From Candidatus Woesearchaeota archaeon (lineage in GTDB: Archaea; Nanobdellota; Nanobdellia; Woesearchaeales; BM511): 34,438 nucleotides of DNA. The notes beneath the pieces are model-generated. The model saw only the letters and a program-made list of their open reading frames with translations, had not been told where the DNA came from and ran no database searches. The translations under genes and the position numbers were made by a program. Position 1 is the first letter of the stretch. Each line of letters starts with the position of its first letter. The stretch covers positions 1 to 34,438 of the forward strand of contig JAHFPP010000006.1 of NCBI GenBank assembly GCA_023266675.1, read 5' to 3'. Of the stretch, positions 4,636-25,915 are shown one piece after another.

Positions 4636-5085
4636 TTAAATCGACAAAAATTTCTCTCTGTCTATATCTTCAATGATGTTGAATGTTTTGATATCATTTA
4701 TCCGAAAAGTGTTTTGAAGCACTTCAAGGAAATGCTGAGTTTCTCTCTGATTCCTAAACACTGTTTCAGCAAGGTAATCATATCCTGAATTTGTAAGATA
4801 CAAGTTGTTCACATTTGGGTGCGCCTGAAGGTATTCTTTTATCAATTCCCGGTTTTCAGGAAGCACACTCATCACATGGACATTTTTTGAATTGTATCCA
4901 ACCTTTTCAAAATTTATCAGCGCAGTATGTTTTATCATACAGTCCTCATTTGATTTTATTCTATCAAATACTGTCGATATCGGGATTTGTGTGTTTTCTG
5001 ATATCTCTTTTAGTGATGCTCTTGCATCTTTTCTTAAGTGTGAAATAATTTGAATGTCTTTTTCTTTCATTTTGGCATATCTCAT
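4636..5085 (-). CDS. Lrp/AsnC-family transcriptional regulator
   Basis: wHTH DIQIISHLRKDARASLKEIS...ISTVFDRIK plus RAM domain (HPNV...SGYDYL). Confidence 0.9.
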   Translation of the reverse strand: MRYAKMKEKDIQIISHLRKDARASLKEISENTQIPISTVFDRIKSNEDCMIKHTALINFEKVGYNSKNVHVMSVLPENRELIKEYLQAHPNVNNLYLTNSGYDYLAETVFRNQRETQHFLEVLQNTFRINDIKTFNIIEDIDREKFLSI

Positions 5086-5573: not shown

Positions 5574-5675
5574 TAAGCCGGAATATTATATATACTTTTG
5601 GCAATTATAATTATTACATATAATTATATAATTACTTTTAGAAAAGTATTTATATTAAATGAATATTTTGACGTT

Positions 5676-6590
5676 ATGAAGAGAAAAATAAATAGAGTCG
5701 GACAGAACACTTTGACTGTAAGCCTCCCAACCAAATGGGCTCAAAAACACGGATTAAAACAGGGAGATGAGGTTGAGGTTGAGGAAGAGGGGTCTTCAAT
5801 TATAATCGGCACAGCACATAAGCCGCAGAAATTGGATATCACAATTGACTTGTCTGATGCTGGCGTAATGTTAAACAGAACTATTGCAGCAATATACAAA
5901 GCAGGGTATGACAGGGCAAACATCTCATACAAAACTCCGTCTGAATTGGAAGTTATACAAAATACTGTGTATAGGGCATGTCACGTTTATGAAATTATGA
6001 ATATTAAAAAAAATGTTGTTGAAATCAAATCTATTTCAGAGCTTAACCATCTTGATTTCAATTCTGTTTTTAGAAAGATGGCTCATGCTATTTTAACCAT
6101 CTCCCAAGAAACTTATGAAGCTGCTAAAAACCAGAATTATGAAGAGCTTTCAGTAATAATTCTAAAAGACAAGGTTGTAGATAGACACGCCGATTTTTGC
6201 AGAAGAGTAATAAATAAAAATCATGAACTTGATTATGAACGAATTGGGCCTCTATATGTAATTGCTGAGCAAACAGAGATTGCAGCTGACATATTTAAAA
6301 TAATCAGTAAAGAGCTAATAAAAAATAGAATAAAACTTTCTCCTGCAATGTTACATCTGTTTAGCGAGGTTCATATGATAATGGAACAGTTATATGATAT
6401 GATTCACGATTTCAATATAGATAAAATCAGGAAAATTGGTCATCAAGAAGTTAAGCTTAGGGAAGAAATAGATGAACTTTGTAAGACGCAAAAGAAAGAC
6501 ATAAAAGTTTTAGCTTACCTAATAAACATGTTTGAAACATTGTTTGAGATGAAAAGCGCAGTTATAACTCTGCACATAGGAATAAAATAA
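5676..6590 (+). CDS. AbrB/MazE-domain, PhoU-like phosphate uptake regulator (archaeal type)
   Basis: MKRKINRVGQNTLTVSLPTKW...GLKQGDEV (AbrB), IAAIYKAGYD, helical PhoU-like repeats (DKVVDRHADFCRR). Start moved to ATG 5676, 21 nt after TTTATA. Confidence 0.85.
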   Translation: MKRKINRVGQNTLTVSLPTKWAQKHGLKQGDEVEVEEEGSSIIIGTAHKPQKLDITIDLSDAGVMLNRTIAAIYKAGYDRANISYKTPSELEVIQNTVYRACHVYEIMNIKKNVVEIKSISELNHLDFNSVFRKMAHAILTISQETYEAAKNQNYEELSVIILKDKVVDRHADFCRRVINKNHELDYERIGPLYVIAEQTEIAADIFKIISKELIKNRIKLSPAMLHLFSEVHMIMEQLYDMIHDFNIDKIRKIGHQEVKLREEIDELCKTQKKDIKVLAYLINMFETLFEMKSAVITLHIGIK

Positions 6591-6619: not shown

Positions 6620-6627
6620 TTTATAAA
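6620..6627 (+). promoter_or_regulatory. Putative TATA box for the NUDIX/kinase-like operon
   Basis: TTTATAAA 22 nt before ATG 6650, preceded by an imperfect inverted repeat CTATTAA-N7-TTAATAG. Confidence 0.55.
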
Positions 6628-6649: not shown

Positions 6650-7324
6650 ATGATATGCTCAAAAGAACAGCTTGAGGGAATTGTTAATAAGTCATTAAGT
6701 TTTAAACCTCTTACTGAGATACCTGCAATTTTAGCGTATACTTCTAACTCAAGCGGATTTAATGAGGGTGAGAGAGAGTTCTTTCAGATATTTGATAAAA
6801 AGGACAATCCTATCATTGTTGATGATAAACCGCTTGTTTTATATCGCGGAGAATGCCATGGTGAAAACAGGATAAAAGGATTATATCACCGTGGCGTTAA
6901 TATATTATTCTTAAAAGACGGAGAAGCGTATGTCTCCACAAGAACACTTGATAAAGATACTTACCCAGGATATACTGAATTTAGCGCTTCAGAGCATTCC
7001 AAATTCGGTGAAGATTATCTAACTGCTGCAGTAAGAGGGTGCATGGAAGAACTTAAACAAAAAGTCAGTCCAAAACAACTTATGCCTTTCTTGCACACTA
7101 AATTTGACAATGAAACCCAGTCAGAGCAAGTCACGTACTATCTTTTACGCCATGACGGCAGTGAAATAAAACCAGACACAACTGAAATTGCAAAAGGCGA
7201 ATGGGTTGACCTAGCATATCTCAAAAACACGCTTAAAGAGGATGAATCAATGGCAAAACTTCATTTTAGAGATGATCATTTACCGGCATTGAAATACTTC
7301 TTAAGGTGTTATGATGGTGGATAA
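6650..7324 (+). CDS. NUDIX hydrolase (IDI type 1/YfcD-like branch)
   Basis: GLYHRGVNILF, R-x3-KDTYPG, Nudix-like box SEHSKFGEDYLTAAVRGCMEELK, EIAKGEW. Confidence 0.8.
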   Translation: MICSKEQLEGIVNKSLSFKPLTEIPAILAYTSNSSGFNEGEREFFQIFDKKDNPIIVDDKPLVLYRGECHGENRIKGLYHRGVNILFLKDGEAYVSTRTLDKDTYPGYTEFSASEHSKFGEDYLTAAVRGCMEELKQKVSPKQLMPFLHTKFDNETQSEQVTYYLLRHDGSEIKPDTTEIAKGEWVDLAYLKNTLKEDESMAKLHFRDDHLPALKYFLRCYDGG

Positions 7325-8537
7325 TTCTGACTATAACGAGATAGTGCATGTTTATCCCGATGATACACATAGTTTTGATCCATTTTATACTTTAAATGAA
7401 TTGACTAATAAACTGATTAAACATACTTTCTGGAAAATTTCTTCCTCATCTACTTCTAAAGGCATGCCTCCAACAAAAATCGATGCAGTAGAACTTGCAA
7501 GGTATACCCTTAATAATCCCTCTGTAAAATCTATATTTTCTATACATTCAGGATCACCATTATTTCTTAATAAAAACCGTTTAACTAATTTATTTTATCA
7601 ATTAAATGATACCAATCCGGGTGTCCTTAAATTAACATCCCATAACCTGCTCCCTTATATTTATCAGGGGGATAATGAAACAAGACGAATAGCATATAAA
7701 TTAAAATTTTCAAAAGTAACGGTTATGTCTTTATATGAACCTACACCCAGGTATTCATCTTCATTACCTTTTATAGATATCTTTAACTTTGATAAATTAA
7801 CTGATACAATTATTGGTGTTGGTTTTGATGGCTCTTTATCAAAACGCACATTTTCATTATCTCCTTCTTTTGAGACTAATCCCTTAATTAATCTATTAAT
7901 TAGTGATGCAACTCCTAAACTTTATGTTGTTGTTGCACCTACGGGATTTGGCAAGAGCACGCTTATTGATGAGATGCGATATTTGTGTGTTAAACCGATG
8001 CCAAAGGTTACAACAAGGCCAAATAGAAATTTAGCTGAATTGCGAGATGATTCTATTGAATTTGTTTCTAGAGACACGTTTACTGAAGGGGTTAAAGAAG
8101 ATTTTATTGTTGGGGGACACGCATATAATAGCCATCTTTATGGTTTAAAAAGAGATAAAATAAAATGCATTCCTTCTACACATAGGAATTATATCGTCGA
8201 TTCTTGTGATGTTGAGTCTGCGCTTAGATTAAGGCAAGAATTTCCTGATTTGGTCAGACTTGTAACTCTCTTTCCTTCAGTAACTTATTCAGGATTTGGT
8301 CTGGAAGAACGATTAAAAGATTTATCAAAACCTTCTTCTGGTTTTGATTCATTTCAAGAAGAATTAGACTACCTAAAAAGAAATAAGATTGCAAAAACAG
8401 ATACAAAAGCGCGCTTGGAGTATGTGGTCTCAGAATCAATAAAGTTTGAGAAATATTTACCGCACTTTGATATTGTACTTAAAGGTTATGACCTGCAATC
8501 AAATGTCAACCAATTACTTTTGGAGATGGCAAAATGA
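7311..8537 (+). CDS. Unknown N-terminal domain + C-terminal guanylate-kinase-like P-loop domain (paralog 1)
   Basis: LYVVVAPTGFGKSTL, KVTTRPNR, EFVS, YNSHLYG resemble the GK P-loop and NMP-binding motifs. Confidence 0.75.
   Translation: MMVDNSDYNEIVHVYPDDTHSFDPFYTLNELTNKLIKHTFWKISSSSTSKGMPPTKIDAVELARYTLNNPSVKSIFSIHSGSPLFLNKNRLTNLFYQLNDTNPGVLKLTSHNLLPYIYQGDNETRRIAYKLKFSKVTVMSLYEPTPRYSSSLPFIDIFNFDKLTDTIIGVGFDGSLSKRTFSLSPSFETNPLINLLISDATPKLYVVVAPTGFGKSTLIDEMRYLCVKPMPKVTTRPNRNLAELRDDSIEFVSRDTFTEGVKEDFIVGGHAYNSHLYGLKRDKIKCIPSTHRNYIVDSCDVESALRLRQEFPDLVRLVTLFPSVTYSGFGLEERLKDLSKPSSGFDSFQEELDYLKRNKIAKTDTKARLEYVVSESIKFEKYLPHFDIVLKGYDLQSNVNQLLLEMAK
7917..8537 (+). repeat. 621-bp duplicated kinase-like domain, copy 1
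   Basis: Equal-length counterpart at 9113-9733. In the conserved motifs most differences are at third codon positions. Confidence 0.85.
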
Positions 8538-9733
8538 AACATTCCAAAATTAAAAAAGAGGTAAGGACAAACGTGGATAAGAAAGATGATTCTGAATATG
8601 ATGAGATATTTACAATTCGGTTTCAAAATTCTTCCTTTGTTAAAATTACTTTTAAATATGTTCCTTATATTGTACAAAATAAAAATTTTATTAGATTTGA
8701 ATCATACTGGCTTGAAGAATTACCTAAGAATCAAAATTTTTTAATTCATGAACTTAATGAATATATTTCAACTAAAGAAAGTTTAAGCGTCCTAATCCAT
8801 CCATCAATTAATAACTTAAGGTCTTCTGCAAGAAAAGTTATTTCACATTTAATAAATTCAACAAAAAAACCACAATTATTTTATAGTAATACTACTTTTT
8901 CCAGATACACATTAAACGATATATCTCATGCCCTATACGAATTTGATAACTCTATGAGTTTGCCGTTATTTAATAACAACTCGGATAGAAATTCTTCTTC
9001 TTACATTACATTAATCCCTTACTCAAAATTTAATGCTGTAATTGACATCAATGCAGTTCTAACATATCCTAACAACAATTTTATAAACTTATTTACCACC
9101 GATACACATACCAAACTTTATGTTCTTGTTGCTCCAACAGGTTTTGGCAAAAGCACGCTTATTAATGAAATGAGGTATTTATGTGTTAAACCAATGCCTA
9201 AAGTTACAACTAGACCTATTCGGAATTTGGCTGAATTGCAAGATACTACTATCGAATTTGTTTCTGAAGATATGTTTACTAAATTATCAAAAGATGAAGT
9301 AATTATTGGTAGTCATTTATATAACTCTCATCTTTACGGTTTAAAAAAAGCAAAAATACTCAATATTCCCAATTCATACATAAACTATGTTGTGGATTCT
9401 TGCGATGTTGATTCTGCATTCAGGTTAAAACAAGAATTTCCAGATATAATAAGGCTTGTAACTTTGTTTCCCTCCTTAACTTATGCAGGGTTTGGTTTAG
9501 AAGAACGATTAAAAGACTTATCAAAACCTTCTTCTGGTTTTGATTCATTTCAGGAAGAACTTGATTATTTACATAAAAATAAGATTGCACTAACTGACAC
9601 AAAAGCGCGCTTGGAGCATGTAGTTTCAGAATCAAGAAAGTTTGAGAAATATCTGCCTCACTTTGACATCGTGCTAAAAGGATATGACATGCAAGCAAAT
9701 GTAAATCAATTATTATTGGAGATGGCGAAGTGA
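8534..9733 (+). CDS. Unknown N-terminal domain + C-terminal guanylate-kinase-like domain (paralog 2)
   Basis: Same motifs as paralog 1 and the same C-terminus NQLLLEMAK. ATGA overlap with the upstream gene. Confidence 0.75.
   Translation: MKHSKIKKEVRTNVDKKDDSEYDEIFTIRFQNSSFVKITFKYVPYIVQNKNFIRFESYWLEELPKNQNFLIHELNEYISTKESLSVLIHPSINNLRSSARKVISHLINSTKKPQLFYSNTTFSRYTLNDISHALYEFDNSMSLPLFNNNSDRNSSSYITLIPYSKFNAVIDINAVLTYPNNNFINLFTTDTHTKLYVLVAPTGFGKSTLINEMRYLCVKPMPKVTTRPIRNLAELQDTTIEFVSEDMFTKLSKDEVIIGSHLYNSHLYGLKKAKILNIPNSYINYVVDSCDVDSAFRLKQEFPDIIRLVTLFPSLTYAGFGLEERLKDLSKPSSGFDSFQEELDYLHKNKIALTDTKARLEHVVSESRKFEKYLPHFDIVLKGYDMQANVNQLLLEMAK
9113..9733 (+). repeat. 621-bp duplicated kinase-like domain, copy 2
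   Basis: See copy 1; shared run TTATCAAAACCTTCTTCTGGTTTTGATTCATTTCA. Confidence 0.85.
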
Positions 9734-9739
9734 TTGTGA

Positions 9740-11581
9740 ATGGGGGAAAGTATTGATGACTTAATTGAGGAAAGTGAAGGTAAGTTACTTACTGAAACAA
9801 GATTAGAATTAACCCCTGAAATTACAAACATAACAGGTATTGAGAGATTAACAAGATTAGGTGAACTTTATGTTAAAGGTGATGTTCCTTCTGAATTATT
9901 AGCTTCTTTACTAGCTCATTCGACTCAGCTATCATCTTCTTTAAAAAAAGTTGAGATTTCTGAAAATTATGTCATTGGAAGTTTATCCTTCTTAGAAAAT
10001 TGTAAATCTCTTGAAATAATCTCTCTTCCCGATTATTGTCATTTAACAGATTTCTCTTTCCTTATGTCTACTAATTTGGCAGCAACCTTAAAAGAATTGA
10101 CTTTGAGGAACTGCGGCATCGAAGATATCTCTTTTTTAAGACAATATACCTCACTTGAACGGGTAAAACTTGGTAATTGCGAGCATATCCCTAATATTTC
10201 CTTATTAAGCTCTAATGTGCTTTCTTATACACTTCATGACTTGGATTTAACCGGTCTTAATTATTCAGTGAAAGATCTTAATTTTCTTGAAAGATATGCG
10301 TCCCTCAGAAAATTAAGGATTAGTATTTGTGATGGTGTTGAGGATTTCTCAATATTGGGTTCCAGAAATTTAGCTAAAACTCTAAACGAATTAGATTTAC
10401 AAACTGTTTTTCCAAAAGATATATCATTCTTAGAAAAGTATGAGTCTCTTGAAAAGTTATCATTACATCTTTCACGTATTGATTCTGGTTTCTCAGTGTT
10501 AAGTTCAAAAAATCTGTCCAGCACATTAAAAAGTTTGCGTGTGTCTGGAGGTATTAAGGATATTTCTTTTTTAGAAGGATATACTTCCCTTGAAGAATTG
10601 ACAATTAAAGGGGGTGTCTCTATATCTGATTTTTCAGTATTAAATTCTAAAAATTTAATTGAAAACCTCAAAAAGATTCGCCTTGAAACAATTGGTATAG
10701 CTGACGTTTCTTTTTTGGAATATCCATTATCTCTTGAAGAATTAACATTATCTTCTTGCGTCTTTATTCAAGATTTATCGGTTTTAAATAGCTCTAATTT
10801 AAAAGACAACATAAAAAAGTTGAATTTAACTTTTACTCCTCATTTAGAGGATATCACTTTATTTTTAGATTATAAAAACTTAAGGTCTTTACTTTTATCA
10901 CACCAAAACCTAAACTGGTTCAAAGTTGTGGATGGAAAGTTTATTAATCAGGAAACAATCCAAACACTTAGAGAAAAAGGAGTTAATGTTGATATTCAAG
11001 GGGATATTAAATCTCCTGATTTTGAACAACAGCCTTGTTTGTATCTGGTTTGTGGTCCTTCTGGTTCTGGAAAATCAACTTTAATCAAAGATTTGAGAAA
11101 AGAGATGAATGTTAAACAGTTAGTCAAATCCACTTCAAGAGAATTAAGAAATGGTGAAACTCCAATAAATGGGGCAATATTTCATAGAAGTTTAGATGAG
11201 ATGACAAGACTATATCAAGATAAAAAATTATTATTTTTTCATGAATACGTTGGCAACCTTTATGGTATCGGGTTATCTGATTTCTCAGGTTCAAAACAAT
11301 CCAATAATAAACATCTCTTTGATACATGTGATATTGACGCAGCATATCGTTTAAGAGAATTGTATCCTGGGTTTGTTAAAGTAATTGCCTTAATACCAAC
11401 AATTTCAGAGATTGAACAAGGATTGCAAAGACGAAATAGTTATGATAAACAAAACAGGCTTCCCAGAATAAAAGACGAGTTAAATCTAACACTTGCCTAC
11501 TCACAAGATGCAGATTATGTTGTTCATGGAAACAGTTGGAAAGAACGAAAAGATAAGATTAAAGAAATATTAAAGACTTAG
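9740..11581 (+). CDS. Leucine-rich-repeat protein with C-terminal guanylate-kinase-like domain
   Basis: Repeats of DISFLxxYxSLExL alternating with DFSvLxSxNLxxxLKxL, then LYLVCGPSGSGKSTL, KSTSRELRNGE, HEYVGNLYG. Confidence 0.85.
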   Translation: MGESIDDLIEESEGKLLTETRLELTPEITNITGIERLTRLGELYVKGDVPSELLASLLAHSTQLSSSLKKVEISENYVIGSLSFLENCKSLEIISLPDYCHLTDFSFLMSTNLAATLKELTLRNCGIEDISFLRQYTSLERVKLGNCEHIPNISLLSSNVLSYTLHDLDLTGLNYSVKDLNFLERYASLRKLRISICDGVEDFSILGSRNLAKTLNELDLQTVFPKDISFLEKYESLEKLSLHLSRIDSGFSVLSSKNLSSTLKSLRVSGGIKDISFLEGYTSLEELTIKGGVSISDFSVLNSKNLIENLKKIRLETIGIADVSFLEYPLSLEELTLSSCVFIQDLSVLNSSNLKDNIKKLNLTFTPHLEDITLFLDYKNLRSLLLSHQNLNWFKVVDGKFINQETIQTLREKGVNVDIQGDIKSPDFEQQPCLYLVCGPSGSGKSTLIKDLRKEMNVKQLVKSTSRELRNGETPINGAIFHRSLDEMTRLYQDKKLLFFHEYVGNLYGIGLSDFSGSKQSNNKHLFDTCDIDAAYRLRELYPGFVKVIALIPTISEIEQGLQRRNSYDKQNRLPRIKDELNLTLAYSQDADYVVHGNSWKERKDKIKEILKT

Positions 11582-11667
11582 TTATTCCCTACGTATCCGC
11601 TTTGCTTGTTGTACATCATGTACGGCAAAAGCGCTTTTTTTATTCTTTTTCTGAAAAAAAACATCAT
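11578..11667 (-). CDS. Putative 28-29 aa small protein (M)MFFFRKRIKKALLPYMMYNKQSGYVGNN
   Basis: Not in ORF track. GAGGTG SD and AAAAG-TTTATATA upstream. Stop overlaps the convergent stop of the LRR gene. Confidence 0.45.
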   Translation of the reverse strand: MMFFFRKRIKKALLPYMMYNKQSGYVGNN

Positions 11668-11747: not shown

Positions 11748-12407
11748 CTAATAAAACTCTATTTCTCCATCCATGTAAACTCCTTTCTTGAGCTTTACCG
11801 GTCGCCACGAGTCCTCTACAAGCGTTGCATCAAGCCACTCTGCAAGCTCCTTTGGGTTGCCAATAGTTGCAGAGAGTCCGATTAGCTGCATTTTTCTTAA
11901 GACTTTTTTTAGAACTGTAATTATGACTTCAAGCGTTGGCCCGCGCGACGCGTCGTTTAATAAGTGGATTTCGTCAATAATAACAACACTTACAAATCTT
12001 AGCCATGGCGTATGGTGTCTTATGAGTGAATCAAGCTTTTCGCTTGTCGTGACAATCAAATCGTATTTTTCAAGGTAAGAGTCGTTTGAATCTGTGTCTC
12101 CAACTGAAAGCGCAACTTTGATGTCAGGATACCTTTCCTTGAATTCTTTGTATTTCTCTGATGCCAAAGCTTTTAGCGGCACAATATAAACAGCTTTGCC
12201 TATCTGATTATATATAGAGTTTAATGATGCAAGCTCTGCAATCAGCGTTTTTCCGCTAGCTGTTGGCGTGCAGACTAAAAGATTTTTGTTTTCAAAAAGC
12301 CCAGCTTTTATTGATTTTTCCTGTGAAGGCCTAAGTTCAGTAATCTTTGACTCAAGCTTCTCATAAAGCTTTGGGTGAATCTCATTTTTTATATCTAATA
12401 GTTTCAT
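11748..12407 (-). CDS. Hel308/Ski2-like SF2 helicase, N-terminal RecA domain only
   Basis: Q motif LRPSQ, PTASGKT, PLKALA, TSEKLD, DEIH, RGPTLE, LSAT. Ends shortly after WRPVKL. Confidence 0.85.
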   Translation of the reverse strand: MKLLDIKNEIHPKLYEKLESKITELRPSQEKSIKAGLFENKNLLVCTPTASGKTLIAELASLNSIYNQIGKAVYIVPLKALASEKYKEFKERYPDIKVALSVGDTDSNDSYLEKYDLIVTTSEKLDSLIRHHTPWLRFVSVVIIDEIHLLNDASRGPTLEVIITVLKKVLRKMQLIGLSATIGNPKELAEWLDATLVEDSWRPVKLKKGVYMDGEIEFY

Positions 12408-12432
12408 AATCAATTTAGAAATCCGTTCTTTA

Positions 12433-17286: not shown

Positions 17287-19068
17287 GTGAATATGAGTAA
17301 AAATAGGTTTTATGATAAGAATAAAAGGGAGTTTATTAAGAAAGGACTCCTCGCAATTGGTCTTGGTGGGGCAGCAGCACTTTTAAGTAAAGTCGGATTT
17401 GTTGATGCTGATAGAAGACCATCTGTTCCTACTCCTGTAGCCTCTGGAGGAACAGGTGTTTGTACTATCACAGGTATTGTAAAAGGTAATGGGGCATCAG
17501 CTATGACTGCAGCAACTGCAGGTGTTGATTATGCCGCACCCTTACCTGCAAATGCTGCTGGAGCATTAACTAATAATGGTTCTGGAAGTCTATCTTGGGC
17601 AGCTAGTTTACCTATCCTTAAAACAGTTGCTCGTTCATCAAATACTCAACTAACTTCAGCACATTCAGGATATTATTTGCGAGCAACCGGGTCATGGACA
17701 CAAACATTTGATGCTGCCTCTTCATTAACAGATTCTTTCTTTTGTTATATTGAAAATACATCAACAGGTGAAATTACAGTTGATCCTAATGGAACAGAAT
17801 TAATTGATGGTGTAAGTACTTTCGTAATGTATCCTGGTGAAATTAGGATAATACATTGCGATGGTTCTGCTCTTTATTCTAAACTAGTTAGAGGTGGTTA
17901 TAAAGTATATAATACTCCCGGAGCATATACCTTTTGTACTCCTCCAAATTATAACTGTATATTAATCGACGTGCTTGGTGGTGGTGGTGGTGGCGGTGGA
18001 GGGGCCAAGACACATTGCTCTATTCGTTGTAGTAATTGTTTTGGATGTAGCTGTGGAGAACTATCCTATAATAGTTCCATGCATGGTGGAGCAGGAGGAG
18101 GTAGCGCTGCTAGATTATGTGCTTGGTTCGATACACAATGTTATACTGTTTCTGGTGCAATTAATGTTTGTGTTGGTTGTGGTGGTAGTGGTGGTAAAAA
18201 TGGTTGTTTAGGTACAGTTATTTGTTGCGGTTGTTGTGGTGGTAGTGGACAAAATTCCTATTTTGGTACATATTGTGCATATGGTGGTGGTGGCGGCATG
18301 GGTGGATGTCAAAATACGTGTCGTTGTTGCAATATAGCAGGCGGTTCTGGCGCTGGAATTTGTGGCCCTGGTTGTACTACAACTTGTGGCACATGTGTAG
18401 ATGGTGGGGCAGGTCTAACTGCTAACATGTCTTGTAATGGTTGTTCTAATATATGTGCATTTTTAATTCCTCCATTATCATATTGTTCTGCTGGGTCTTT
18501 GAATTGCTGTGTTTTTAATTCCTCTTCTTGTTATGCGTATGTCAATACTTTAGGATGCGGAGCTCCATCATACCAACTATATGGTAATTCTGTGTTTAAT
18601 TGGAGACAACAAATTATATGTATAAATAATAAAAAAGTAATTACCGGCATGGCAGGGGCTCGTGGAGGAGCATATCTATGTTCTGCAGCACAGGGATGTA
18701 ATTGGCCAGGTGTTTCTGGTCCTGCCTGTTATATTGATATTGCTGGTGGTACAATAGGTGGCGGTTCTGGCGGCGGAGTAAGCTGGGGAGCGGATCAGCC
18801 AGGTAATGCACCGGATGGTGGCTGTTGTATATCTAATAATCCCACTAACTGTATTTGGGGTGGATCAGGTGGATGTGGTATGCGACAACATCCTTGGGGA
18901 AATTTAACAGATTGTTGTTGTGGCTGGGTAGGGTGTTATTGTAATCCTGCATCAACAGCCGGTGGATGTGGTAGTGGTGGCGGTGGAGGTGGTTCTGCTT
19001 CCGAAAGTTGTGCTGCAGGGGATGGTTCTGCAGGCGGTAATGGTTGGGTTTGCATAACTTATTTCTAA
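17287..19068 (+). CDS. Putative exported Gly/Cys-rich fibre/adhesin-like protein with Tat-like signal
   Basis: N-terminal NKREFIKK + hydrophobic core + VDA. Phage-fibre-like motifs (VASGGTG, LTNNGSGSLSW, ITVDPNGTELIDG). Gly-rich C-terminal domain ending GGNGWVCITYF. About 50 Cys by hand count. Start may be ATG 17293. Confidence 0.7.
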   Translation: MNMSKNRFYDKNKREFIKKGLLAIGLGGAAALLSKVGFVDADRRPSVPTPVASGGTGVCTITGIVKGNGASAMTAATAGVDYAAPLPANAAGALTNNGSGSLSWAASLPILKTVARSSNTQLTSAHSGYYLRATGSWTQTFDAASSLTDSFFCYIENTSTGEITVDPNGTELIDGVSTFVMYPGEIRIIHCDGSALYSKLVRGGYKVYNTPGAYTFCTPPNYNCILIDVLGGGGGGGGGAKTHCSIRCSNCFGCSCGELSYNSSMHGGAGGGSAARLCAWFDTQCYTVSGAINVCVGCGGSGGKNGCLGTVICCGCCGGSGQNSYFGTYCAYGGGGGMGGCQNTCRCCNIAGGSGAGICGPGCTTTCGTCVDGGAGLTANMSCNGCSNICAFLIPPLSYCSAGSLNCCVFNSSSCYAYVNTLGCGAPSYQLYGNSVFNWRQQIICINNKKVITGMAGARGGAYLCSAAQGCNWPGVSGPACYIDIAGGTIGGGSGGGVSWGADQPGNAPDGGCCISNNPTNCIWGGSGGCGMRQHPWGNLTDCCCGWVGCYCNPASTAGGCGSGGGGGGSASESCAAGDGSAGGNGWVCITYF

Positions 19069-24724: not shown

Positions 24725-25915
24725 ATGGGAAAATTATTTGATTTGGTAAGGCTTTCAAGGCCGCTTTTTCCAAAGGAAAGGGAAAAATTTAATGAGCTTG
24801 AAAAATATATTGACTTAAAAAACATAAAAAAAGTTAAACGCCTATTAAAAAAAGGGTGTATCTTATTTGGTTATTCATCGCTTGCATTATCAGGTGATGT
24901 TCTTTTCAATACAGATTATCCAATTATTTATACCACGCAAAAGTCAAAAGATGACAAAGATTTGAAAGACTTTGTTAAAACAATAACTCTTGAAATTGAA
25001 AAAACAGCGAAAGTTAATGCATATGAGCGGTTTTCAAAAAATGCAGATGAAGTTATCCCTAAACTTATTGCACCAGGAATCATAGGAATGGACCTTGTAA
25101 AAAAAGCAGTCTCACTTCAGCTATTTTCAACTGAGAAAGTTCATATACTTCTTTTAGGCGACCCTGGAACAGGAAAAACCGATGTTATCAGGTCAGCGTC
25201 TGAGCTTGCTCCGGTGTCAAGCATTGGTCTTGGTTCAGGAACGTCTGGAGTTGGCCTTTCAGTGATGGTTAAAGGTGGGAAAGTTATAAAAGGGTTATTG
25301 CCTTTGGCTGACAAGGGACTCTGCTGCATTGACGAATTAAATCTCATGAAAGGTGAAGATATGGCAGCACTTTATTCTGCAATGGAAAAAGGGTTTATTG
25401 CTTATGACAAGGGAGAAACACATATCACTCTTGACGCACGGATAAATGTTCTTGCAACTGCAAACCCTAAAGGTGATAAATTCTCTGGTTGGATGAAAGA
25501 AACAATAAAAAAACAGATACCTTTTGATTCGGCTTTAATGACGCGGTTTCATTTATTATTCTTAGTCAAGAAGTCAAGCGTTGGTGAGTTTGAGGCGATT
25601 GCTAAAAAAATAGTTGGGCATGGTAATTCAGAGTTTAATCCTCATGACGTCAAATTTGTCAAAGAATACATTGATTATCTAAAAGATTTCAAAGTTGAGA
25701 TACCAGAAAAATTAGAGCACAAAATAACAAATTTTGCAAAGGGGCTTAAAGAAAGAGAAGACGAATTCATTACTGAGATTAATCCGCGAATCGTTCACGG
25801 CATCATGAGACTTTCAAAGGCATCAGCCAAAATGAATATGCGTCACGAAGTTAATTCTGAGGATATTGAGAAAGTCATAAACATCGTTGAACGAAGCTTA
25901 AAGATTGAGAGATAA
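24725..25915 (+). CDS. MCM-family AAA+ ATPase, short form
   Basis: IAPGIIG...VKKAVSLQLF, HILLLGDPGTGKT, TSGVGL, GLLPLADKGLCCIDE, AME, VLATANP, LMTRF, PR-x6-RLS. Confidence 0.85.
   Translation: MGKLFDLVRLSRPLFPKEREKFNELEKYIDLKNIKKVKRLLKKGCILFGYSSLALSGDVLFNTDYPIIYTTQKSKDDKDLKDFVKTITLEIEKTAKVNAYERFSKNADEVIPKLIAPGIIGMDLVKKAVSLQLFSTEKVHILLLGDPGTGKTDVIRSASELAPVSSIGLGSGTSGVGLSVMVKGGKVIKGLLPLADKGLCCIDELNLMKGEDMAALYSAMEKGFIAYDKGETHITLDARINVLATANPKGDKFSGWMKETIKKQIPFDSALMTRFHLLFLVKKSSVGEFEAIAKKIVGHGNSEFNPHDVKFVKEYIDYLKDFKVEIPEKLEHKITNFAKGLKEREDEFITEINPRIVHGIMRLSKASAKMNMRHEVNSEDIEKVINIVERSLKIER

Follow-up and report, generated by a model that had tools for sequence, protein, structure and literature searches.

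What would a small archaeal genome do with three guanylate kinase-like proteins encoded in a row, behind N-terminal regions that differ from one to the next? The question is raised by a stretch of 34,438 nucleotides (nt) from a Candidatus Woesearchaeota archaeon (GenBank assembly GCA_023266675.1, contig JAHFPP010000006.1), analyzed here in full and called the window, in which a NUDIX gene is followed by three genes, P2, P3, and P4, whose products end in a guanylate kinase (GK)-like domain. An original prediction made from the sequence alone took these four genes for an undescribed system of variable sensors coupled to a nucleotide kinase. The gene just upstream, absent from that prediction, encodes an AbrB-PhoU transcription factor and is the recurring partner. 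We place at about even chances the reading that the three proteins belong to a family of input-gated GK-fold phosphotransferases that is functionally linked to an AbrB-PhoU regulator and has expanded to three genes at this locus. Equally balanced between right and wrong, in our view, is the proposal that Nanoarchaeota-type (DPANN) archaea have a lineage-restricted two-gene module and that this locus is a copy of it expanded threefold. We document below the folds, domain architectures, conserved catalytic-type residues, gene pairing, and duplication history of these proteins, which are laid out as follows (aa, amino acids).

4636..5085, minus strand: Lrp/AsnC-family transcription factor (Pfam HTH_24, HTH_AsnC-type, and AsnC_trans_reg), a recurrent neighbor of the module
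5676..6590, plus strand: AbrB-PhoU transcription factor (MazE/AbrB domain and PhoU profile matches)
6620-6627, plus strand: TATA-box-like TTTATAAA, read from the sequence, ∼23 nt before the NUDIX ATG
6650..7324, plus strand: NUDIX-fold protein of the IDI/YfcD-like branch, 224 aa (Pfam NUDIX)
7311..8537, plus strand: P2, 408 aa, with a putative CheY-like degenerate receiver (aa ∼7-195) and a GK fold (aa ∼199-408; 7905-8537)
8534..9733, plus strand: P3, 399 aa, sister paralogue of P2, with an N-terminal ∼185 aa of uncertain fold and a predicted beta-alpha order as in P2, and a GK fold (aa ∼190-399; 9101-9733)
9740..11581, plus strand: P4, 613 aa, with a leucine-rich repeat (LRR) solenoid (aa ∼20-400) and a GK fold (aa ∼430-613; 11027-11581)
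11635-11652, plus strand: T-rich run after P4, read from the sequence, where the transcription unit plausibly ends

As originally predicted, the four genes from NUDIX to P4 overlap or abut behind a promoter-like site. NUDIX and P2 overlap by 14 nt and P2 and P3 by 4 nt, a gap of 6 nt separates P3 from P4, and all lie on the plus strand. Together with the TATA-like TTTATAAA, which we take to match the archaeal promoter consensus, and the T-rich run, this arrangement makes a single transcription unit plausible. The AbrB-PhoU open reading frame (ORF) is open from a TTG at 5598, and its likely start is the ATG at 5676, which a second TATA-like sequence, ATTTATATTAAA at 5648-5659, precedes. By eye, the translations of P2, P3, and P4 contained no signal-peptide-like hydrophobic N-terminal stretch.

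All three proteins do end in a GK-like P-loop domain. Their scores against Pfam Guanylate_kin (PF00625) were 31.2, 30.3, and 42.0 bits for P2, P3, and P4, above the gathering score of 25.2, and the domains belong to the guanylate kinase fold. Their scores against the Gmk equivalog family TIGR03263 (44.1, 40.4, and 68.8 bits) fell far under the cut-off of 160.45, and, judged by these scores, none of the three is an ordinary Gmk, which agrees with the original prediction. When 35 family members were aligned, the columns that were invariant or at least 90% conserved were P210, G212, G214, and K215 of the P-loop, T235-R236-x-x-R239, Y277-G278, G328/G330-L331-E332-x-R334, R368, and D387; K215, R236, R239, Y277, and R334 were invariant, and R368 was at least 90% conserved. 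Against Staphylococcus aureus Gmk (4qrh), HMMER aligned the P-loop, TRxxR, and YG motifs to their Gmk counterparts (P-loop, TTRxxR, and YG) and, for P4, the lid arginines as well. We take these to be the P-loop Lys, the NMP (nucleoside monophosphate)-phosphate-binding Arg/Arg/Tyr, and the lid Arg. Gmk presumably contacts guanine through a Ser before TTR, a Glu, and a Ser/Thr after YG; in these three columns P2 and P3 have K, G, and L, and P4 has K, F, and I. Since the catalytic motifs align and the guanine-contact columns are changed, the phosphoryl-transfer machinery looks intact and the base pocket looks different.

The same motifs bear on whether the domain is an enzyme at all. Eukaryotic proteins combining LRRs with a GK domain exist, and the GK-like domain could be a noncatalytic protein-binding module, making P2, P3, and P4 adaptors as in eukaryotic MAGUK proteins. 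We find such a scaffold very improbable. A degenerate P-loop is, as we understand it, the defining feature of the MAGUK-type domain, whereas the P-loop G-x-G-K-[ST] and the arginines are kept here. Further, no sequence match to eukaryotic LRR-GK or MAGUK GK-like proteins was found at an E value of ≤0.001; only true Gmk chains were matched.

Conserved catalytic-type residues also suit regulated nucleotide salvage, in which the GK-like domains would be true NMP kinases with a diverged base pocket and possibly the cell's only GMP kinase; we regard this as rather doubtful. The accompanying scheme, in which the NUDIX protein would cleave NDP-X (NDP, nucleoside diphosphate) to NMP, the kinases would rephosphorylate the NMP, and AbrB-PhoU would be merely a local transcriptional regulator, is likewise only a tentative possibility. 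Nudix products are NMPs, which we counted in its favor. The genome of the window (G000; 1.22 Mb, 96% complete; the window is its contig C20) has no PF00625 match besides P2, P3, and P4, and P4, the least diverged, matches 4qrh with an E value of 1.4e-11. GTP cyclohydrolase II-like genes lie beside the triad of AsnC, AbrB-PhoU, and GK genes in genomes G022 and MAG014, and genes for orotidine monophosphate decarboxylase and thymidylate synthase (G022) and for adenylosuccinate synthetase (G079) adjoin it as well. However, only 23 of the 151 genomes of the order had a PF00625 match at an E value of ≤0.001, leaving 128 without one (the 151-genome tallies of PF00625, NUDIX, and AbrB-PhoU all include G123, G134, and G114, on which none of the specific claims depends), and the ten control genomes with a match were all bacterial and none archaeal. 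For this reason we do not take the trio for the housekeeping enzyme despite its being the sole PF00625 match in the genome, nor the family for the general GMP kinase of the order. The shortfall against the Gmk equivalog cut-off and the replaced guanine-contact residues (K, G/F, and L/I) count against salvage as well, and a housekeeping enzyme would need neither receiver or LRR inputs nor three paralogues.

P2 and P3 were 77% identical over their last 223 residues, with no BLASTP similarity before that point; in global alignment, their N-terminal halves were 19% and their C-terminal halves 78% identical. Recent gene conversion as the source of this C-terminal likeness was ruled out by a DNA identity of only 73% over the same part. 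In P4, the LRR_4 match (52 bits; Pfam cut-off, 27) is unambiguous, and the LRR unit shows direct DNA repeats at the nucleotide level. The original prediction had described the N termini as two unrelated regions and an LRR solenoid. The solenoid stands, and P2 and P3 cannot be aligned there by sequence, but “unrelated” was too strong. The P2 N terminus (aa ∼7-195) models as a CheY-like fold, and P2 and P3 have the same predicted beta-alpha-beta order. Further, an iterated profile built from Pfam-verified receivers reached the family members P0013 (E value, 2.1e-5), P0006 (2.3e-4), and then P0007, all of which fall in the GK clade of P2 and P3, while 0 of 250 shuffled decoys scored below 1e-3. 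Because of the shared strand and helix order and the reach of the receiver profile to clade-mates, the N termini of P2 and P3 point to a degenerate receiver, which for P3 we only infer. The strand order of the model suggests that P2 lacks an Asp at the acceptor position. An Atlas look-up of P2 residues 1 to 190 gave no usable match. Profile-profile comparisons (hhalign) gave a probability of 64% and an E value of 6.5e-5 over 50 columns for a mid group against the receiver (REC) group, and E values of 0.068 and 0.011 for the P2/P3 group against the REC group and the mid group, respectively; each is too weak to stand alone.

Beyond this locus, the family is rare: searching 1.84 billion representatives with a profile built from P2, P3, and five homologues of metagenomic origin returned 63 proteins at an E value of ≤1e-10, nearly all of them 330 to 650 aa in length and with a C-terminal GK-like domain. 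Ordinary Gmk proteins of ∼190 aa began to appear at ∼1e-9. At the ≤1e-10 level, the long form was found in 3 of 401 genomes of the class, and a contig profile search of genomes gave one true relative, the Nanoarchaeota MAG014. Seven bacterial contig matches were set aside as covering the P-loop only, and the apparent GK match of G028 was dropped as a NOG1-type GTPase. A Pfam scan of 62 representatives placed a receiver before the GK-like domain in four (P0023, P0029, P0030, and P0031) and an LRR above the cut-off in six (P0038, P0039, P0046 [which is P4], P0047, P0049, and P0062). Weaker LRR matches occurred in P0056 (LRR_4, 23.5 bits against 27), P0036, and P0028, and the others had no recognized N-terminal domain. 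Among the sampled genomes, proteins joining a receiver to a GK domain (REC-GK) occurred in G002, which is in the GTDB family of the window, G044, and G047. The idea of a constant GK domain with interchangeable input modules thus extends to the family at large, whose N termini are Pfam receivers, LRRs, or unrecognized regions of ∼150 to 230 aa. The acidic pair, acceptor Asp, Ser/Thr, and Lys (DD, D, S/T, and K) are kept in P0023, P0029, P0030, P0031, and G047, whereas the G002 receiver has lost the acceptor Asp and the Lys, a pattern consistent with receivers drifting toward pseudo-receivers.

A maximum-likelihood tree of 68 GK domains split 55 rows, long forms, from canonical or short Gmk (support, 98/96). 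Rows without the regex-defined P-loop had been dropped (G047, G079b, G022, G141, G009, P0008, and some fragments). P4 fell inside an LRR-GK clade (100/94), and P2 and P3 were sisters (100/94) within an 18-row clade of proteins with N termini of no recognized type, itself sister to the clade with the four Pfam-REC forms. Three paralogues on a single 7484-bp metagenomic contig, P0003 to P0005, formed a clade of their own (94/78). Since this clade is separate from that of P2 and P3, tandem expansion has therefore occurred twice, in parallel.

Other arrangements turned up in the same survey. G123 encodes a 676-aa ORF with a central GK domain, which was left out of the locus count as its neighbor is cut by the locus end. 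In G037, two long GK-like genes are followed by a third GK-like ORF of 135 aa (L013:10776-11183), whose P-loop and TTRxxR look canonical; it had no Pfam match at an E value of ≤0.001 and is probably a truncated paralogue. The reverse architecture, with the GK-like domain N-terminal and 130 to 250 aa without a Pfam match behind it, was seen in G079 (L075:7902-9206 and 9316-10629) and G008 (L079:7787-8710), where an AbrB-PhoU gene still adjoins. The only strong stand-alone receiver of G000 (76 bits; C11:6421-6756, minus strand; L084:1501-1836) has Glu rather than Asp in the acceptor column, depending on the alignment, and may be a phosphomimetic pseudo-receiver.

The second component of the proposed module is the AbrB-PhoU protein. 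In the window it has an N-terminal MazE/AbrB swapped-hairpin domain (39.8 bits; cut-off, 24.7), and an AbrB domain was present in all 10 GK-adjacent orthologues. A profile of these 10 matched the PhoU structures 2i0m (E value, 1.6e-6), 1t72 (2.1e-6), and 4q25 (3.5e-5), which places a PhoU domain in the group; the Pfam PhoU family itself was matched at an E value of ≤0.01 by 3 of the 10, the protein of the window not among them. One published paper records both AbrB and PhoU among archaeal transcription-factor families, where the fusion of the two is a known architecture (PMC6316755).

Ten loci with a long-form GK gene were examined, and each had an AbrB-PhoU gene no more than two genes away; these loci span two orders (G000, G037, G058, G008, G079, G044, G047, G002, MAG014, and G414, the last from another order of the class). 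NUDIX stands between the two genes in G000 and G037 and a 189-aa ORF in G008, while in G058 the two are directly adjacent and point the same way. In G079, G047, G044, and G414 they run tail to tail with overlaps of 4 to 23 nt, and in G002 and MAG014 tail to tail with gaps of 12 to 16 nt. At ∼2.7 AbrB-PhoU copies per genome of ∼1,300 genes, a gene number estimated from genome size, chance would make one an immediate neighbor in <1% of loci. Among five loci with short-form GK genes, an AbrB-PhoU gene was nearby only in G022, three genes off. The surroundings recur as well: the AbrB-PhoU genes of G037, G058, and G022 have AsnC homologues (BLASTP) as neighbors; the gene at this position in MAG014 has a below-cut-off AsnC_trans_reg match (20.9 bits against 25; E value, 3.3e-4); and in G002, G058, and G064 the GK or NUDIX gene is flanked by genes resembling Rad50/SbcC, Mre11 (Metallophos), and HerA. 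This suggests a conserved chromosomal neighborhood around the GK and NUDIX genes.

A MazE/AbrB domain next to a P-loop kinase might also call to mind a toxin-antitoxin pair, with an AbrB/MazE-type antitoxin and a zeta-like kinase toxin. Besides that domain, the upstream protein has a weak doc_partner match (27.2 bits against 55.9), and P4 has a subthreshold Zeta_toxin match (18.2 bits against 22.3). We consider this pairing extremely improbable: the Zeta_toxin match covers the P-loop only, the supposed antitoxin is ∼300 aa long and belongs to the large AbrB-PhoU transcription-factor family rather than being a small antitoxin, and in 6 of 10 loci (G002, G047, G044, G079, MAG014, and G414) its gene and the GK gene converge, unlike a cotranscribed pair.

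The NUDIX protein is tied to the GK genes less closely. It matched Pfam NUDIX (PF00293) with 32.6 bits over aa 79-200 (cut-off, 21.1) and carries an N-terminal extension of ∼75 aa. Its best NCBIfam matches were isopentenyl diphosphate (IPP) isomerase (32.9 bits against 127, and also 22.5 against 105.8) and YfcD (22.7 against 152). It does not belong to type 1 IPP isomerase (IDI), as the equivalog cut-offs were missed and Ser112, in an SxSEH motif, stands where we understand the catalytic Cys of IDI to be. Invariant residues were C69, H70, H80, R81, S112, H116, E121, R129, E133, and E134. The Nudix box consensus is GX5EX7REUXEEXGU; here the box reads ...E-x7-R-G-C-M-E-E..., with an invariant EE pair, without the Gly six residues before the first Glu, and with Gly as the second residue of REUxEE in this protein and three close orthologues. 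Orthologues with the same extension occur in G037, G064, and G024 (37 to 39% identity). In G037, the NUDIX gene overlaps the AbrB-PhoU gene by 4 nt and lies on the strand opposite the tandem GK-like array, and in G010 a short GK gene lies beside an ordinary NUDIX gene. The predicted partnership of NUDIX and GK genes therefore does recur (G000, G037, and G010) but is not obligate: it was found in only 3 of 15 loci, and G024, reported as 100% complete, has the NUDIX orthologue and no PF00625 match. We treat NUDIX as an accessory of the module.

The original prediction had favored antiviral defense or host manipulation, with variable sensors detecting a virus or host factor and triggering a nucleotide-modifying kinase, and with NUDIX as eraser or precursor supplier. 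Several features agree with such a conflict system: tandem paralogues with 78% identity in the enzymatic half and 19% in the N-terminal half, parallel tandem expansions in two lineages, LRR sensors, a patchy distribution (23 of 151 genomes), and a NUDIX gene that, from the gene layout, is probably cotranscribed. The database comparisons and neighborhoods lean the other way. In PADLOC-DB 2.0, NUDIX matched PDC-S07 with 17.2 bits (E value, 7e-4), P2 and P3 matched nothing, and P4 had P-loop-only matches of at most 17.7 bits; PHROGs returned generic families only. Among 15 related loci there was no Pfam match to restriction, CRISPR, or abortive-infection families, and the neighbors were regulators, nucleotide metabolism, and repair; the sole hint of a mobile element was a below-cut-off Phage_integrase match (20.8 bits against 27.1) by the short GK gene of G009. 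The constant place of the genes next to AsnC and AbrB-PhoU regulators, kept across families and in two orders, the bona fide receiver inputs, which point to two-component-type signaling, and the linkage of NUDIX in so few loci also argue against a conflict role, which we consider quite unlikely. Only the fast divergence of the input halves, combined with tandem expansion in parallel, still speaks for such a role.

We return to the reading of an input-gated phosphotransferase tied to AbrB-PhoU, against which several observations weigh. In the tree, the REC-GK domains of G002 and G044 cluster with canonical Gmk, and the long forms may therefore not form a single clade. Leave-one-out hidden Markov models of the N termini scored 6.3 and -3.4 bits for P3 and 11.8 and 2.8 bits for P2, where the best of 1000 shuffles reached 7.4 to 10.7 bits, and gave no demonstrable sequence homology. 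No PF00072 (REC) match was found in P2, P3, or P4 at an E value of ≤0.1; a receiver-seeded profile gave an E value of 2.6 for P3, and P2 fell under the reporting limit of E 10. The model of the P3 N terminus is of low confidence, and none of its best 50 structural matches was N-terminal, all covering the GK domain. On the regulator side, AbrB-PhoU is a large multicopy family, with 414 matches in 129 of the 151 genomes, and in G002, G047, G044, and G079 a copy other than the GK-adjacent one best matches the AbrB-PhoU protein of the window. The convergent arrangement in 6 loci is not the classic layout of a regulator and its target. Adjacency may in part be inherited gene order, and the count of 10 of 10 overstates independence because of kinship among the genomes and some common synteny (AsnC; Rad50/Mre11). 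The nucleotide-metabolism neighbors fit a plain salvage role equally well. A complex prediction for AbrB-PhoU with P2 scored 0.00 (mark, 0.32) and, run with no controls, says nothing either way.

If the module works as we propose, its first component would be the AbrB-PhoU transcription factor and its second a protein in which an input domain (receiver, degenerate receiver, or LRR) gates a GK-fold P-loop phosphotransferase. The kinase would move the gamma-phosphate of ATP to a phosphomonoester acceptor, probably not GMP, and the PhoU domain of the neighboring DNA-binding protein would read the changed nucleotide or phosphate pool or respond to direct contact. At this locus, the pseudo-receiver form would have been duplicated to give P2 and P3, whose N-terminal halves then diverged beyond recognition, and with the LRR form P4 beside them several cues could feed one output chemistry. 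NUDIX, as a cotranscribed accessory, could plausibly supply NMP-type acceptors or remove the product. A bolder form, which we hold unlikely, is that AbrB-PhoU and the long-form GK make up a previously unknown archaeal signaling circuit, in which the gated kinase would make or consume a phosphorylated nucleotide-type ligand and PhoU would set transcription accordingly. Just as speculative is the extension that, through the expansion and its fast-diverging input domains, a DPANN cell dependent on a host could combine several protein-level cues, possibly host derived, into one output, with Nudix resetting the signal.

To our knowledge, DPANN signal transduction is almost uncharted. Reduced DPANN genomes keep few regulators, and a module conserved across two orders likely matters for host-dependent DPANN life. 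If the proposal holds, the GK domain would be a new output domain for the response-regulator repertoire and an example in prokaryotes of the GK fold being recruited into signaling, parallel to yet independent of eukaryotic GK-like domains. How input specificity evolves could be studied in P2 and P3 as in a natural experiment, their catalytic halves being conserved and their input halves diverged beyond recognition. Should the proteins be plain NMP kinases, they would bear on GDP synthesis in archaea without canonical Gmk.

The rest of the window holds a few features of its own. The archaeal markers Cbf5/DKCLD, MCM, and L10e were identified by Pfam, and the GC content around the locus is ∼30 to 37%. 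A 221-aa ORF at 11748-12413 (minus strand), ending 166 nt from the end of P4, matches the DEAD/ResIII N-terminal helicase domain (116 bits) but not Helicase_C; it looks truncated or split and is possibly a mark of rearrangement at the edge of the GK cluster. A 593-aa ORF without a Pfam match (17287-19068, plus strand) overlaps the GC-richest stretch of the window (18001-19000; GC, 0.44; GC skew, +0.345). The MCM ORF (24725-25915, plus strand) is, at 396 aa, short for an archaeal MCM; Pfam gave a P-loop domain from residue 105 and a lid, and reported no N-terminal or OB-domain family.

How does the locus compare with known systems? The original prediction recognized no named system with this architecture, and in the literature searched we found no description of a sensor-fused GK-like protein paired with AbrB-PhoU and no response regulator with a GK-like output. 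Compared with Gmk (PF00625 and TIGR03263), the GK domains here are fused to input domains of 190 to 430 aa, occur in three copies, and form a separate clade, and the lid of P2 and P3 is ∼20 residues longer. Like response regulators with an enzymatic output, some relatives combine a receiver bearing the full acceptor-site set with a GK-like domain, whereas P2, with its modeled CheY-like fold, and P3 have no Pfam REC match. No histidine kinase partner was identified, with the two HATPase_c matches of the genome, in ORFs of 637 and 612 aa, left unchecked. The TadZ-type atypical receiver (PDB 4lda) shares only the fold, at 10% sequence identity, and in TadZ the receiver is fused to a ParA/MinD-type ATPase rather than to a GK domain. 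The conserved His/His/His/Glu pattern of the NUDIX protein resembles the metal site of type 1 IPP isomerase, whose residue roles we take as generally understood. Finally, the genomic link of a PhoU-domain protein with a P-loop enzyme and a protein containing a receiver is shared with the bacterial Pst-PhoR-PhoB system. A Pfam scan of the window found no pst, phoR, or phoB genes, and the functional analogy to bacterial PhoU is our presumption. In contrast to the bacterial protein, PhoU is here fused to an AbrB DNA-binding domain.

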